Shown piece after piece: positions 2,712 to 15,285 of a stretch of DNA of 64,000 nt (position 1 is the first letter of the stretch; the number at the start of each line of letters is the position of its first letter). Below the pieces are notes generated by a model that was not told the origin of the DNA, searched no databases, and was given only the letters and a program-made list of their open reading frames with translations. Source of the DNA: Escherichia coli (GTDB taxonomy: Bacteria; Pseudomonadota; Gammaproteobacteria; Enterobacterales; Enterobacteriaceae). Location: the NCBI RefSeq assembly GCF_013315695.1, contig NZ_CP054353.1, one strand, 5' to 3'. The translations under genes were made by a program, and so were the position numbers.

Positions 2712-3899
2712 TTATTGCGCCGCTGCGTACAGACCGACAATCTGCTCCAGGCTGGCGGTACGCGGGTTACTGCGCAGACAAACATCTTCCAGCGCGGCCT
2801 GCGCCCATGCACCGTAATGCGCAGATGTCGCACCAATATCGCCCAGTCGTTTACCAATCCCGACTTCCGCAATCAGCTCACTTACCGCGTTAATAGCGTC
2901 ACGATCGTCGGATTTTTTAGTTCTCAGCGCCCGGCCAATCTGACTAAACCGATCACGACAAACCATCCGGTTAAATTCCATCACCGTTGGCAGCAACATA
3001 GCGTTCGCCAGACCGTGCGGAATATGCAGCGCCGCCCCTGGCTGATGCGCCATCGCGTGGCACAACCCAAGTCCGGCACTGGAAAACGCCATTCCCGCCA
3101 TACATGAAGCCAGCAACATGCTCTCGCGGGCGGCAAGGTCGTGACCGTAGCCCACCGCTTTCGGCAGCGATTTGCCAATCATCGCAATGGCACCAATCGC
3201 CAGACTGTCGGTAAACGGTGTGGCGTTCAGCGCGCTGTACGCTTCAATGGCATGGGTTAACGCATCAATGCCAGTCATCGCCGTGACATGCGACGGCACA
3301 CCTTCGGTCAATGCGGCGTCGAGGATCGCCACATCCGGCATCAGCGAGGCATGGGCTAACACCTGTTTGCGCCCGCTTACCGCATCGATAATCACCGTCA
3401 CGTTAGTCGTTTCAGAGCCGGTTCCGGCGGTCGTTGGAATGGCAATCAACGGCAGGCGCGGTTGCAGAACGCTGGTTTCTGACATTTCTGCCAGCGTGCT
3501 ATCCGGGTTCGTCACCAGCAACGCCACGGCTTTCGCCGCATCCAGCACCGAGCCGCCGCCAAACGCGATCACCCCGTCACAACCTGATTCACGCAACTGC
3601 GCCACGGCTGCACACACGTCGGTGATGCATGGTTCGCCCACCGGACATGGCCAGAGCGTCATGGCGATACCTTTAACGGCCAGGCTACGCGTCAGCCCGG
3701 CGGTCATCCCGGTCTGATGCAAAAAGCTGTCTGCCATCACGAACAGATGTTTCAGCCCACGCGTTTGCGCTTGCTGCCCACAACTGCTCACCGCGCCCGG
3801 ACCGCAAAGCGTCACCGGTGGAACGCTAAATGTTTTTACCCGTTGCAGATTCAGGGTATCGAACGCCTGAAAGAGCGCGGTCTGCAATTCATTTTGCAT
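2712..3899 (-). CDS. eutG: Iron-containing alcohol dehydrogenase EutG
   Basis: 395-aa ORF with Fe-ADH family features, operon position. Confidence 0.9.
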   Translation of the reverse strand: MQNELQTALFQAFDTLNLQRVKTFSVPPVTLCGPGAVSSCGQQAQTRGLKHLFVMADSFLHQTGMTAGLTRSLAVKGIAMTLWPCPVGEPCITDVCAAVAQLRESGCDGVIAFGGGSVLDAAKAVALLVTNPDSTLAEMSETSVLQPRLPLIAIPTTAGTGSETTNVTVIIDAVSGRKQVLAHASLMPDVAILDAALTEGVPSHVTAMTGIDALTHAIEAYSALNATPFTDSLAIGAIAMIGKSLPKAVGYGHDLAARESMLLASCMAGMAFSSAGLGLCHAMAHQPGAALHIPHGLANAMLLPTVMEFNRMVCRDRFSQIGRALRTKKSDDRDAINAVSELIAEVGIGKRLGDIGATSAHYGAWAQAALEDVCLRSNPRTASLEQIVGLYAAAQ

Positions 3900-4725
3900 A
3901 TAGCCCCTCCGCTTTCTCTCGCCCGCTACTGGCGATCGCCAGCGGGGTCATAAACAAACTGTGCTGCGGTAAATGCACCTGTAACGCCGGGAATTGTTTG
4001 CGAAACAGTTCCGCCACGCCCGGTTGCATACAAGAGCCGCCCGCCAGCCATAAATCCGTAATGCCCTGCCCTTCAATATGCCGGGCGACGATGTCCGCCA
4101 TTTTTTCGTACACCGGTTTCACCGCGGGCCAAATCTCTTCACCGTGACCGCGCTTGTACTGCTCTGCCTCTTCCAGCGAAATACGACGATTTCCGGCGAG
4201 AGTCAGAGAGATGTGATGTCCGCCGGTCGCTTCATCCGCCGAGTACGTCACCTTGCCCTTTTTCACGATGGCAATACCAGTAGTGCCACCGCCGATATCC
4301 ACTACACCGGCGTTGTCCAGTTGCAGCAGATCCGCGACTGCGGTTGGCTCATCCAGTACATGGCTCACTTCCAGTCCGGCAGATTCCAGCACGTTGATGG
4401 AAATACGCGGGTCCGTACCTGGAGGAAAAGAGGTCGCCGCATGGCTAAAACGGCGACCGAATTGCTGCTCGAGGGTGTCGAGATGGCGACGAACAATGGT
4501 GACCGCACCGAAGAAATCCCAGACGATGCCGTCGCGGACCACATCGGCCCAGTCGAGGCATACCGCCACCGGCAGACCGTCGCGGTCGACAACCATCGAC
4601 ACCACATCGCAGGTGCCCAGATCCACCCCCAGCCACAGCGGAGATTCCGTCGCGGCGGGCGTCTGGTTACACAGCGTTGCCGCCGTTTGCAGACGTGGGG
4701 TGAGCCATTGTTCATCGTGCGCCAT
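3889..4725 (-). CDS. eutJ: EutJ, actin/Hsp70-like ATPase fold chaperone-like protein
   Basis: 278-aa ORF with LGVDLGT sugar-kinase/Hsp70-type N-terminal motif; operon position. Confidence 0.88.
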   Translation of the reverse strand: MAHDEQWLTPRLQTAATLCNQTPAATESPLWLGVDLGTCDVVSMVVDRDGLPVAVCLDWADVVRDGIVWDFFGAVTIVRRHLDTLEQQFGRRFSHAATSFPPGTDPRISINVLESAGLEVSHVLDEPTAVADLLQLDNAGVVDIGGGTTGIAIVKKGKVTYSADEATGGHHISLTLAGNRRISLEEAEQYKRGHGEEIWPAVKPVYEKMADIVARHIEGQGITDLWLAGGSCMQPGVAELFRKQFPALQVHLPQHSLFMTPLAIASSGREKAEGLYAK

Positions 4726-9883: not shown

Positions 9884-9898
9884 GGTAATGACTCCAAC

Positions 9899-10402
9899 TT
9901 ATTGATAGTGTTTTATGTTCAGATAATGCCCGATGACTTTGTCATGCAGCTCCACCGATTTTGAGAACGACAGCGACTTCCGTCCCAGCCGTGCCAGGTG
10001 CTGCCTCAGATTCAGGTTATGCCGCTCAATTCGCTGCGTATATCGCTTGCTGATTACGTGCAGCTTTCCCTTCAGGCGGGATTCATACAGCGGCCAGCCA
10101 TCCGTCATCCATATCACCACGTCAAAGGGTGACAGCAGGCTCATAAGACGCCCCAGCGTCGCCATAGTGCGTTCACCGAATACGTGCGCAACAACCGTCT
10201 TCCGGAGCCTGTCATACGCGTAAAACAGCCAGCGCTGGCGCGATTTAGCCCCGACATAGCCCCACTGTTCGTCCATTTCCGCGCAGACGATGACGTCACT
10301 GCCCGGCTGTATGCGCGAGGTTACCGACTGCGGCCTGAGTTTTTTAAGTGACGTAAAATCGTGTTGAGGCCAACGCCCATAATGCGGGCTGTTGCCCGGC
10401 AT
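9899..10402 (-). CDS. insB: IS1 transposase InsB reading frame (made as InsAB' fusion by -1 frameshift)
   Basis: 167-aa ORF ...[65 protein letters not shown]; A6C slippery run (minus strand, plus-strand T-run 10340-10345) in the insA/insB overlap. Confidence 0.93.
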
Positions 10403-10596
10403 CCAACGCCATTCATGGCCATATCAATGATTTTCTGGTGCGTACCGGGTTGAGAAGCGGTGTAAGTGAACTGCAGTTGCCATGTTTTACGGCAGTGAGA
10501 GCAGAGATAGCGCTGATGTCCGGCGGTGCTTTTGCCGTTACGCACCACCCCGTCAGTAGCTGAACAGGAGGGACAGCTGATAGAAACAGAAGCCAC
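10321..10596 (-). CDS. insA: IS1 InsA (transposition inhibitor / DNA-binding protein)
   Basis: 91-aa [46 protein letters not shown]... Confidence 0.95.
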
Positions 10597-10646
10597 TGGA
10601 GCACCTCAAAAACACCATCATACACTAAATCAGTAAGTTGGCAGCA

Positions 10647-10970
10647 TCACCCACAAAGCGTATAATTTAATAAGCGTCCTAAACCACTGACGGTTTGTGA
10701 TAACGCTTCTTCTACTGCGCCCACCGAGCCATAAATCACCAGCGCGCCGCTAAAACGGTCGAGAAAACCGATATGCACATCGGCGGCTTTCAACGCTAAA
10801 TCACCGGCGATCATCGCCGTTTCTCCGGGAGTTAGCGTCATAATGCCAATTGCGCCCGCATCCGGAACGCCGATTTTCTTCGCCAGTTCCTCGCCGGGAT
10901 GCGCGATGAGATGCGCCAGTGTGACCTGTTTACCGGGCACAAATTCCTGAATGATGCGTTCTTTATCCAT
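10647..10970 (-). CDS. eutS: Microcompartment shell protein EutS, 3' end altered by IS1 (ends ...NYTLCG; stop lies inside IS1)
   Basis: Starts [15 protein letters not shown]...; reading frame runs into the IS1 right end; deleting IS1 plus one TSD copy restores ...LCEMTKS followed by TAA (rc of 9858-9860). Confidence 0.85.
10652..10660. repeat. Right copy of 9-bp target-site duplication CACAAAGCG flanking IS1
   Basis: Identical to 9875-9883. Confidence 0.9.
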
Positions 10971-11335
10971 GAGTCGCCGCCTGTGAAAAACTTTCGTGTA
11001 TCGTGACAATTTTTCGTCAGAGTAAATAACAAAATTCGGCAAGCGCGTTTAAAAGGTGAGGTAGATCACGAACAATGGGGAAAATACTTTATGCAAAGAA
11101 AATCACATACATCACATGAATACAAACAGGAGTCGATAAGTTTTATTTATCATATGTTACCCACCCCATTTTTAATGGTTCTTCGCATAACCCTATGTAG
11201 CATTTATAATAATTATCAGAATACATATCCCATGAACTGTTGTATTCTGAAAATATTATTATACTCACCCCATTTAAGGTACAACATAAACGATGAGTTT
11301 ATTCAGGGCATAAAAGAAATGGATGGATACCTGTA

Positions 11336-12406
11336 ATGAAAATTCACTACCTTGTCACCACTCTCGAAACGGGAGGCGCTGAATTTGCGATTCCTGATAT
11401 TGTGACTACTCTACAAGATCTTGGTCATGAGGTGAAAATTTATGTATGTGAACCCCGAGATATGGGCGCGGCACCGCGTCTGAAAGCGGCCGGTTTATCC
11501 TGGTGTTTATTATCAAATCGGCGGCGTTCTGTTCCAGTGCTTGTCGGTGCTTATCTGGCAAAAATCATTTACGACAAACCCGATCTCATCTGGACTTCGT
11601 TAAGTTGGGGGACGCGTATTGGACAATGGGGCGGCCGACTTATGGGCATTCCGGTTATCAGTTTTAAACATAGCGCCAGCGTAAAACCAGCAACCTGGCG
11701 TATGCGCAGCATGTCACGTTTATGGATTGGCGATTCTGCAACCGTAACTCAATACCTGCATGAAACCATGCGGATCCCGAAGCAACAAGTGATGTGCTGG
11801 CCTTTTTTTCAGGCTAATCCGCAAGCTGCTCAAGCGAAAAAGTGGGACGGGGTATCAGTTTTACAATTAGGCACCGTTGGTCGCCTGCATGAAGTTAAAA
11901 ATTACGCAGGATTAATTACTGCACTCGCTTCGTTTGTCGATAAAAACCCGCAATTGCGCTCGCGAATCCGACTAACCCTTCTCGGTGAGGGAGCCGAACA
12001 AGAGGTTTTGAAAAAGACCATAACACAACACGCCATGGAGGATGTAGTTTGTTTAGCGGGGTTTTCTGCGGATATCGAAAATTTTCTTGCCGGATTACAT
12101 GTCTATATCCAAACTTCCCGCTACGAAGGGATGTGCCTCGCCGCACACGAAGCCATGAATGCAGGGCTTGCGATCATTACGCCCCCTGTAGGTGAACTTA
12201 AAGAATCGGTAATTGATGGTCATACCGGCTATATACTTAATGGCGAACTAACTCCAGCACTGGAGGAAGTACTTAACCGTATTTTCAATGAACCCACAGA
12301 ATTACAACACTATGGGCAAAATGCGCGTCAGTATGTATTACAGAAATTCAGCCATGAAAATTTTGTCCAGTCTGCAATCAACATTGTTAATAGACTTATT
12401 CACTGA
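11336..12406 (+). CDS. Uncharacterised GT4-family (GT-B fold, Glycos_transf_1-like) glycosyltransferase, 356 aa, in an AT-rich segment
   Basis: N-terminal LETGGAEF...LGHEV motif and C-terminal E-X7-E motif (YEGMCLAAHEAMNAGLAIITPPVGELKESVIDGHTGYIL); about 42% GC over the first 120 nt by manual count; no counterpart in K-12 gene order as recalled. Confidence 0.8.
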   Translation: MKIHYLVTTLETGGAEFAIPDIVTTLQDLGHEVKIYVCEPRDMGAAPRLKAAGLSWCLLSNRRRSVPVLVGAYLAKIIYDKPDLIWTSLSWGTRIGQWGGRLMGIPVISFKHSASVKPATWRMRSMSRLWIGDSATVTQYLHETMRIPKQQVMCWPFFQANPQAAQAKKWDGVSVLQLGTVGRLHEVKNYAGLITALASFVDKNPQLRSRIRLTLLGEGAEQEVLKKTITQHAMEDVVCLAGFSADIENFLAGLHVYIQTSRYEGMCLAAHEAMNAGLAIITPPVGELKESVIDGHTGYILNGELTPALEEVLNRIFNEPTELQHYGQNARQYVLQKFSHENFVQSAINIVNRLIH

Positions 12407-12410
12407 ATAA

Positions 12411-12445
12411 GGCAGTAAAAAGGCATTTTTTGGTACTGCCTTTTC
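12411..12445 (+). terminator. Putative intrinsic terminator of the glycosyltransferase gene
   Basis: GGCAGTAAAAA / TTTTTGGTACTGCC stem followed by TTTT, 5 nt after the stop. Confidence 0.5.
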
Positions 12446-12949
12446 ACCGAATACTATGGTTATCGTACTTGTCGTGGCGATGGGAAAAGTCGTTACAGTT
12501 TTCATTCCCTTGCATAGCCGTGACGCCCCCTTTTCACACACAAAGAAAATGGTGGATGTTTTATACTCCTCCACCACCAAAGGCAGTCAAGATGGATAAG
12601 TTAATGCTCGCCCATGCCCCCAATTTATGGGCCATGGAAAAACGTCTTGCAAACAGCTGTGTACGGGAATAATAGCAGTGCGGGTATGAGCAAGACATTA
12701 TTTTATCATGACGGGCAAAATTGCAGCCGGACCTAGGGCGGTGCATTGCAGATGCTGAAACTGGACCCGCTATGTTTATTATCTCCAGAATTTAATGCGT
12801 CTGGAAGTACCTACAACTGCTGCGCCTTTTATTGATGGCATGCATACGCTTTCTGGTGTTGGCGACGTTACATTCATGATGCCTGGCTACAACTTAAGGG
12901 CTCGCCTCAGCAATTCTGAGTGGATGTACAGCGGCGTATACAGAAGTGG

Positions 12950-12988
12950 GTCAGCAAAACCGCTTACCCCGAATAAACAGGGTAAGCG
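12950..12988 (-). terminator. Putative intrinsic terminator of maeB
   Basis: Perfect 9-bp stem CGCTTACCC/GGGTAAGCG just 3' of the maeB stop, followed on the minus strand by GUUUUG. Confidence 0.5.
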
Positions 12989-13005
12989 TGATTTAAAGGA
13001 ATGAA

Positions 13006-15285
13006 TTACAGCGGTTGGGTTTGCGCTTCTACCACGGCCAGCGCCACCATGTTGACGATACGACGTACCGATGCGATCGGCGTTAACACGTGAACCGGTT
13101 TCGCCACGCCCATCAGCACCGGACCGACTGTCACACCTTCCGAGCTGGAAACGCGCAGTAAGTTGTAACTAATGCGGGCAGCTTCCATGTTCGGCATCAC
13201 CAGAATATTAGCGGAACCTTTCAAAGGGCTGTCCGGCATACGGTCGTTGCGAATCGCTTCCACCAGCGCTGCATCGCCGTGCATTTCACCATCAATCATC
13301 AGTTCTGGCGCACGTTCCCTGACCAGTTCCAGCGCCTGACGCATTTTGCTCGACGACGGGCAGTCAGAAGAACCAAAGTTGGAGTGCGACAACAGAGCCA
13401 CACGCGGTTCAATACCAAAACGACGAACAGTTTCTGCCGCCATCAAGGTGATCTCCGCCAGCTCTTCTGCATCAGGCTCATCATTGACGTAGGTATCGGC
13501 AATAAAGGTGTTACCACTCGGCAACAGCAGCGCGTTCATGGCACCTGCGGTGTGAACGCCATCGCGATAACCAAAGACATTTTTCACCACGCTAAAGTGT
13601 TCATGATAATCGCCCACCGTACCGCAAATCATTGCATCGGCTTCGCCACGCTGAACCATGATCGCGCCGATCACTGTCGGGTTACTGATCAGCGCACGCT
13701 GCGCCTGCTCCTGAGTGACACCGCGACGCTTCATGATCTGGAAGTATTCGGTCCAGTACTCTTTAAAGCGCGGATCGGATTCGTTATTGACGATCTCAAA
13801 ATCAACACCCGCTTTGATCTGCAAGCCCAGTTTCTGAATGCGCATTTCGATCACGTTCGGACGACCAATAAGGATCGGTTTCGCCAGTCCCAGCGTTACC
13901 AGTTCCTGAGTGGCATGCAGAACGCGCGCCTCTTCCCCTTCCGGCAGAACGACGCGCTTCGGCGCTTTGCGAGCCTGGGAGAAAATCGGCTTCATAAACA
14001 GGTTGGTTTTGTAAACGAACTCCGTCAGCTTGTCGATGTAGACGTCGAAATCAGCAATCGGACGCGTCGCCACGCCCGACTCCATCGCGGCTTTAGCGAC
14101 CGCAGGAGCGATCTTAACGATCAAGCGCGGATCAAACGGTTTTGGAATGATGTATTCCGGACCAAAGCTCAGATCCTGATCGCCATAAGCTGAAGCCACC
14201 ACTTCACTCTGTTCCGCATGGGCCAGTTCTGCAATCGCGTGTACCGCCGCCAGTTTCATCTCTTCGTTGATGGCGGTTGCGCCAACGTCCAGCGCGCCAC
14301 GGAAGATGAACGGGAAGCAAAGCACGTTATTAACCTGGTTCGGGTAGTCGGAACGGCCGGTACAGATGATGGCATCCGGACGCACTTCTTTCGCCAGCGG
14401 CGGCAGAATTTCTGGTTCCGGGTTCGCAAGCGCCAGGATCATCGGCGCACGAGCCATTTTCTTCACCATTTCCTGGGTCAGCACTTTCGGGCCGGAACAA
14501 CCCAGGAAAATATCCGCGCCTTCAATCACATCATCGAGGGTACGTTTGCCGTCATCCACTACCGCATATGCGGCTTTGGTTTCCGCCATGTTTGGCTCAC
14601 GGCCCTGATAGATAACGCCTTTTGAATCGCAAACCACGATGTTATGTTTTTGCAGCCCCAGCGCCACCAGCAGGTTCATACAGGCGATTGCTGCGGCACC
14701 CGCGCCAGAAACCACCATCCGCACGTCGGAGATGTTTTTCTCCACCACGCGCAAGCCGTTGAGGATGGCGGCAGTGCTGATAATTGCCGTGCCGTGCTGA
14801 TCGTCGTGGAATACCGGAATATTCATCCGCTCGCGCAGTTTCTGTTCAATATAGAAACATTCTGGCGCTTTAATGTCTTCGAGGTTGATGCCGCCGAAGG
14901 TCGGTTCGAGCGCAGCGACGACTTCAATAAATTTGTCCGGGTCGAGTTCATCAACTTCAATGTCAAATACATCAATCCCGGCGAATTTCTTAAACAGAAC
15001 ACCCTTGCCTTCCATCACCGGTTTGCCTGCCAGCGCGCCAATGTTGCCTAACCCCAGCACTGCCGTACCGTTAGAGATCACCGCTACCAGGTTACCGCGC
15101 GCGGTATATTTGTAGGCTTTTAACGGGTCTTTTTCGATTTCAAGACAAGGTGCGGCAACGCCTGGTGAGTAGGCCAGCGCCAGATCGCGCTGCGTTGCCA
15201 GAGGCTTGGTTGGAGAAACCTGGATTTTCCCTGGAACTGGAAATTCATGGAAATCAAGTGCACTTTGTTTTAACTGGTCATCCAT
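13006..15285 (-). CDS. maeB: NADP-dependent malic enzyme MaeB (malic enzyme plus PTA-like domain), 759 aa
   Basis: 759-aa [26 protein letters not shown]...; the + strand ORFs inside it are antisense artefacts. Confidence 0.95.

Follow-up and report, generated by a model that had tools for sequence, protein, structure and literature searches.

A probable pseudogene of the GINT1_N family between a glycosyltransferase gene and the maeB terminator in Escherichia coli

The gene-poor stretch that follows a family-4 glycosyltransferase (GT4) gene and lies downstream of maeB in this Escherichia coli chromosome is almost certainly an ordinary pseudogene, unannotated or mis-annotated, which adjoins the conserved maeB terminator. 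In the window, i.e., the whole stretch of 64,000 nucleotides analyzed here, positions 12407-12958 would represent, with a confidence that we regard as very high, what is left, in non-functional form, of the second gene in a small, putatively sugar-modifying cassette of two genes located between eutS and maeB, and this remnant presumably yields no product. Some 600 bp with no gene are uncommon in E. coli, and the cause here is a pseudogene. Homology to a functional gene, disabling lesions including deletions, and a relaxed substitution pattern with lost constraint are directly visible in the alignments, as is the conservation of the terminator in K-12. It was suggested in a preliminary description of the region that the stretch could be a decayed gene remnant from the acquisition of an island, and this suggestion was borne out: the stretch aligns with an intact GINT1_N-family gene, coding for 300-322 aa, at the same site in 84 E. 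coli genomes.

The ORF-poor character of the stretch was also described correctly. The three short ORFs that had been named (12430..12672 and 12795..13004 on the plus strand, 12561..12746 on the minus strand) are all present in the ORF list, and between the stop codons of the glycosyltransferase (12406) and of maeB (13006) the list has only short ORFs that overlap one another and none longer than these. The features of the region are collected in Table 1.

Table 1. Features between the GT4 gene and maeB (window coordinates; residue numbers of the pseudogene fragments and main body refer to the 300-aa protein)
Feature	Position	Strand	Description
GT4 gene, first gene of the cassette, intact	11336..12406	+	356 aa; WP_001571749.1 (RefSeq GT4 protein)
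Glycosyltransferase stop codon	12404-12406	+	
Terminator-like hairpin followed by TTTTC	12409..12442	+	just after the GT4 stop; where the 31-nt and 120-nt deletions meet
Two small 5' pseudogene fragments	12421..12474	+	pairwise alignment, tblastn, blastn
First 5' fragment	12421-12433	+	about codons 11-15
Second 5' fragment	12434-12474	+	about residues 53-69
Pseudogene main body	12475..12958	+	residues ~130-300; directly after the 181-nt deletion
Short ORF	12430..12672	+	80 aa, TTG start; residues 152-202 of the intact protein; blastp E = 4e-24
Short ORF	12561..12746	-	61 aa
Short ORF	12614..12736	+	residues 201-245 of the intact protein; blastp E = 7e-13
Short ORF	12795..13004	+	69 aa, ATG start; residues 269-296 of the intact protein; blastp E = 7e-14, 82% identity over 28 aa
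maeB 3' flank with intrinsic terminator	12952..13005	-	backbone common to K-12
maeB stop codon	13006-13008	-	gene convergent with the glycosyltransferase
maeB	13006..15285	-	759 aa; convergent with the cassette; ORF list, RefSeq annotation

On the eutS side the K-12 chromosome can be aligned with the window as far as 11081; toward maeB the alignment resumes at 12952, and in between the insert takes the place of about 125 bp of K-12 spacer. Within the stretch itself the alignment to K-12, which had been proposed as a check, leaves only 12952-13005 in common, and 12407-12951 is absent from K-12. In a near-identity search the interval 12407-13005 was found in six of 5426 complete E. coli genomes, 100% identical in all of them. 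By searching with the eutS-to-maeB interval, a related insert that is ~360 bp longer was found at the same site in 84 further genomes of the 5426. There the second gene is intact and is annotated as a 'glucosamine inositolphosphorylceramide transferase family protein' (WP_224053104.1, encoded at 3203..4171 of the locus L003). A sensitive blastn search with the remnant alone recovered two states only in the collection, the remnant at 100% identity (n = 6) and the intact gene at 79% identity including gaps (n = 84), and blastn detected no form intermediate between the two among the 5426 complete E. coli genomes. MSB1_4I, MS 21-1, and GF131 are among the carriers of the remnant, and ST648 strains are examples of those with the full cassette. 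An intact copy of the window-type allele was not found in the protein database, in which the identity range of 66%-100% held only fragments of 172-213 aa. We considered these fragments as intermediates and rejected them; they are frameshifted copies of the L003 type in error-prone assemblies where the neighboring genes are also fragmented. A 23-mer common to both alleles gave no match in the species-representative genomes. In RefSeq, three of the six genomes have no annotation in the remnant stretch, and the other three list the ORF 12795..13004 as a 'hypothetical protein' (WP_001330583.1).

The intact E. coli protein matches the Pfam family GINT1_N (PF24793) at 4e-35, with GH43 below threshold, and no NCBIfam model matches it. 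Its structure was modeled confidently with AlphaFold2 from an alignment of 17 sequences (pLDDT 94, pTM 0.92), and based on this model it is predicted to be a GH43-like five-bladed β-propeller. In Foldseek the model resembles the five-bladed β-propeller glycoside hydrolases and phosphorylases GH117, GH62, GH43, and GH130 with E ~1e-7 and TM-scores of 0.5-0.58, a likeness of the predicted structure that is at the fold level only. A sequence search of solved structures in the PDB with the family profile gave no significant match; a GH43-type xylanase came closest (E = 0.57). Homologues of ~300 aa are widespread (1096 matches at E ≤ 1e-5). The GT4 protein itself matches Glycos_transf_1 (6.5e-27) and Glyco_transf_4 in Pfam, and a GT4 gene adjoins the GINT1_N gene in every genome context examined (L003, L010, L011, L012, L014, and L015). 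In Shimwellia blattae (L010), Pluralibacter gergoviae (L011), and Rouxiella (L012) the two genes form a bare cassette at unrelated chromosomal sites; in Acetobacter (L014) and on a Sphingobium-like contig (L015) the pair lies within polysaccharide or lipid-modification neighborhoods. This adjacency across genera means that a GINT1_N gene is to be expected downstream of the GT4 gene in the window. A search of the literature gave nothing relevant on the maeB-eutS intergenic region or on bacterial GINT1-family proteins. We also noted that PGAP models the intact gene as 322 aa, with a start inside the 3' end of the GT4 gene (L003 3203-3268). An internal Met (MNCYTT...), located 13 nt beyond the stop of GT4, is the first residue of the homologues from other genera and of the 300-aa protein cluster P0001, and the RefSeq start of the intact gene is probably 22 codons too long.

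The remnant is collinear with the intact gene. Pairwise alignment of the two shows eight deletions of 31, 120, 181, 3, 2, 18, 8, and 1 nt, 364 nt in total, and five of them (31, 181, 2, 8, and 1 nt) shift the frame. Around 40% of the length of the second gene is lost, including its start, which was removed by the 31-nt deletion; the ATG, residues ~1-10 and residues ~16-52 of the 300-aa protein are deleted. The 181-nt deletion is flanked by a 7-nt direct repeat, TGGCGAT, of which one copy was kept, a hallmark of deletion by slippage or microhomology. The deletions of 3, 2, 18, 8, and 1 nt lie inside the main body of the pseudogene. Two nonsense changes, read from the sequence and appearing as in-frame stops in tblastn, convert a Tyr codon (TAC to TAG, 12735-12737) and a Trp codon (TGG to TGA, 12918-12920), and the original TAA stop is AAA at 12956-12958.

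In tblastn (PGAP numbering) two frames of the window match the intact protein, over residues 152-202 and 201-322, and jointly give E = 2.8e-41. One of the 5' fragments was also detected (KGVLY--LFAESYDYRTRRGD against KGIFWYCLFTEYYGYRTCRGD, residues 75-93 in the same numbering, E = 5.7e-4), and blastn aligns L003 3440-3481 with 12440-12481 of the window at 83%. Compared with bacterial stand-alone PF24793 proteins such as WP_224053104.1, the remnant is thus homologous along residues ~130-300 and in two 5' fragments, and it likewise lies directly downstream of GT4, which ends at 12406. By similarity and by adjacency it belongs with this family. It differs from the PF24793 members in that no uninterrupted frame of ~300 codons with a start is left; with so much deleted, with frameshifts and nonsense codons and with invariant residues lost, it cannot function. 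The lost residues were identified from an alignment of 17 family members (Enterobacterales, Acetobacteraceae, and Sphingomonadaceae) that has 47 invariant columns. Deleted are D46, P47, F48, G49, W51, L90-P99, L111-P112, and P216, so that the whole DPFG and LPE regions are gone; R201, G203, G204, and P206 are substituted (GARMGGTPF became SAGMSKTLF), and Y224 is replaced by a stop.

The substitutions also point to a gene that is no longer under constraint. Between the window and L003 the flanking backbone is 98-99% identical and the GT4 gene 90.8% at the nucleotide level without indels, and the identity is 77% in the upstream non-coding part of the insert and 79% over the aligned bases of the remnant. 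Mismatches against the intact-type allele by codon position are nearly flat in the remnant (19.5/15.0/24.1%), compared with 5.6/4.2/17.9% in GT4, a pattern that is typical of purifying selection. The second gene is dead, and it was already so during much of the time in which the two alleles diverged. Eight deletions, of which at least one lies between short direct repeats, stripped it of its start and of ~40% of its length, and substitutions then gathered in it without constraint.

The hairpin at the maeB end of the stretch has a different origin. It contains a perfect 9-bp inverted repeat, CGCTTACCC/GGGTAAGCG, at 12961-12969/12980-12988. A terminator scan finds it on the minus strand, which is that of maeB, followed by GUUUUG with the U-tract at 12956-12959. 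The stem has 11 pairs (7 of them G-C) and begins 17 nt after the maeB stop, as is characteristic of a Rho-independent terminator, and the hairpin RNA folds at -20.3 kcal/mol (z = -4.7; 0/200 shuffles fold as well). The K-12 chromosome (L005), which is without the island, carries the same hairpin, GCTTACCCTGAATATTCAGGGTAAGC, at an equal distance from the maeB stop, with the same stem (GCTTACCC/GGGTAAGC) and with similar stability (minus-strand RNA, -19.5 kcal/mol, z = -5.5). The window copy differs from that of K-12 by three loop-proximal substitutions and by a different 17-nt spacer to the stop codon. These data support the earlier interpretation of the hairpin as the putative Rho-independent terminator of maeB; the hairpin belongs to the ancestral backbone and lies outside the insert. 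Where the second gene is intact, its stop directly precedes this hairpin, and from this position it follows that the two convergent genes share it.

Against this background other readings of the stretch can be weighed. The closest intact gene is only ~79-85% identical to the remnant at the nucleotide level, and some of the indels could formally belong to a functional variant, but the missing start codon, the five frame-shifting deletions and the two nonsense codons together make such a view untenable. A second option is that the ORF 12795..13004 (WP_001330583.1) is a real gene for a small protein of 69 aa. It has an ATG start and three of the six genomes carry a PGAP call for it, yet in the other three identical copies PGAP makes no call, and the protein has no Pfam match. 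Its first 28 residues correspond to residues 269-296 of the intact GINT1_N protein and the rest is out of frame, with a tail that runs through the lost stop and the maeB terminator and exists only by virtue of the 1-nt deletion and the loss of the stop; the intact allele has no ORF of such a shape. The 'hypothetical protein' is a by-product of these two changes, and we find a real gene here hardly credible. None of the short ORFs has a Pfam match at E ≤ 0.01, and it was only the pairwise comparison with the intact E. coli protein that revealed the homology. By tblastn and blastp, the three plus-strand ORFs that match the protein are successive stretches of it, each in a different frame. A clear protein match for a short ORF had been named in the preliminary description as a refuting outcome; the match found here confirms a gene remnant and counts against a novel RNA or a new gene.

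The preliminary description had also proposed an unannotated small RNA in the stretch. Such an RNA might start near 12783 and reach to the 12961-12988 hairpin, or it might be processed from transcripts that read through GT4. Hairpins are present, as is a weak promoter-like site on the plus strand at 12755-12782 (9/12 matches), and an ORF-poor stretch beside a terminator hairpin resembles the setting of 3'UTR-derived and intergenic small RNAs of Enterobacteria. Here, however, no Rfam family matches at E ≤ 1 in 11000-14000, and promoter-like sites are below chance expectation (2 found against 4.4 ± 2.0 in shuffles). The plus strand after the 12961-12988 hairpin reads GAUUUAAAGG, a poor U-tract. 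The stretch occurs in only six of 5426 genomes, all identical, so that neither conservation nor covariation speaks for a structure. Neither a described family nor a conserved promoter-to-terminator unit with conserved structure was found, and unlike the small RNAs of Enterobacteria, the stretch is coding-sequence debris with no conservation beyond the six copies. As the whole of it is accounted for as a pseudogene and a terminator, the proposal found no support and we consider a small RNA very improbable. A pseudogene remains by far the better description, within which the transcript or the 69-aa ORF might have a secondary role.

A last alternative concerns the hairpin just behind the GT4 gene, which had been described as the glycosyltransferase terminator. 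The structure is indeed present: a perfect 9-bp repeat, AAGGCAGTA/TACTGCCTT at 12409-12417/12434-12442, precedes TTTTC, and the RNA folds at -15.3 kcal/mol (z = -3.5). The equivalent stretch of the intact allele, which holds the ribosome-binding region and the start of the second gene, is unfolded (-4.1 kcal/mol, z = +0.6). The hairpin may now terminate the transcription of GT4, or it could have arisen by chance. It is conceivable, if doubtful, that the remnant was partly exapted in this way, with the hairpin at the deletion junction serving as a newly evolved terminator that keeps GT4 transcription out of the convergent maeB. A stable hairpin followed by UUUUC, where the intact allele has no structure, would fit such a process. 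The GT4 gene is free of indels while the adjoining ~540 retained nucleotides carry eight deletions, which argues that GT4 is probably still expressed and selected, and it presumably still has a function on its own. On the other hand, 2/200 shuffles fold as well, and a simple terminator scan did not list the hairpin owing to its large outer loop. All six copies are identical, so that there is no population variation in which selection could be tested. A new terminator would in any case be compatible with the pseudogene explanation and is no replacement for it. We regard as rather unlikely the fuller version, in which the junction hairpin is a new terminator that insulates a selected GT4 from maeB and GT4 has a function, acquired or original, that is independent of its near-obligate partner.

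Upstream of GT4 the best promoter-like site, TTCGCA-17-TATAAT at 11182-11210, is likely to be the GT4 promoter. An 81-aa ORF (11091-11336, plus strand) ends exactly at the GT4 start codon. We considered it as a third gene of the cassette, but it has no Pfam or NCBIfam match and stop codons abound in the corresponding frame of the other allele, and it is probably spurious.

The history of the two alleles can be followed beyond the insert. The block in which the window type is diverged from other E. coli extends from ~11040 to ~13070, that is, past the insert, through the spacer of the maeB terminator and ~60 nt into the 3' end of maeB, where the mismatch bins are 12/100 and 2/100. This extent implies that the block was imported by recombination from a more distant donor. 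In GF131 (L002), compared over 10636-13270 of the window, the locus is a mosaic: to the left of ~12130, inside GT4, it is identical to the intact-type allele, and to the right it is identical to the window type including the remnant. Such a mosaic indicates homologous recombination between two alleles that are ~10% diverged. The eutQ gene is frameshifted in GF131. In the window an IS1 lies at ~9890-10652 between eutP and eutS, where it abuts the 3' end of eutS, and homology to K-12 resumes at 10652. In isolate AF3 (L001) IS1 is nearer to GT4 and eutS is unannotated, which suggests an IS1-associated deletion, and in strain EC488 (L004) IS1 lies between eutS and GT4. IS1 seems to have targeted this spacer repeatedly.

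Multiple small deletions, one of them between direct repeats, flat substitutions and spurious short ORFs, some of which enter annotations as hypothetical proteins, are what is seen in ordinary pseudogenes of E. coli accessory islands, and nothing material separates the remnant from these; only the survival of an intact partner gene and the ~10% divergence of this allele from the intact one are slightly unusual. For annotation, the stretch should be marked as a pseudogene of a GINT1_N-family gene. The six strains that have GT4 without its partner, set against the 84 that have both genes, form a natural experiment that could help to assign the function of this widespread cassette.
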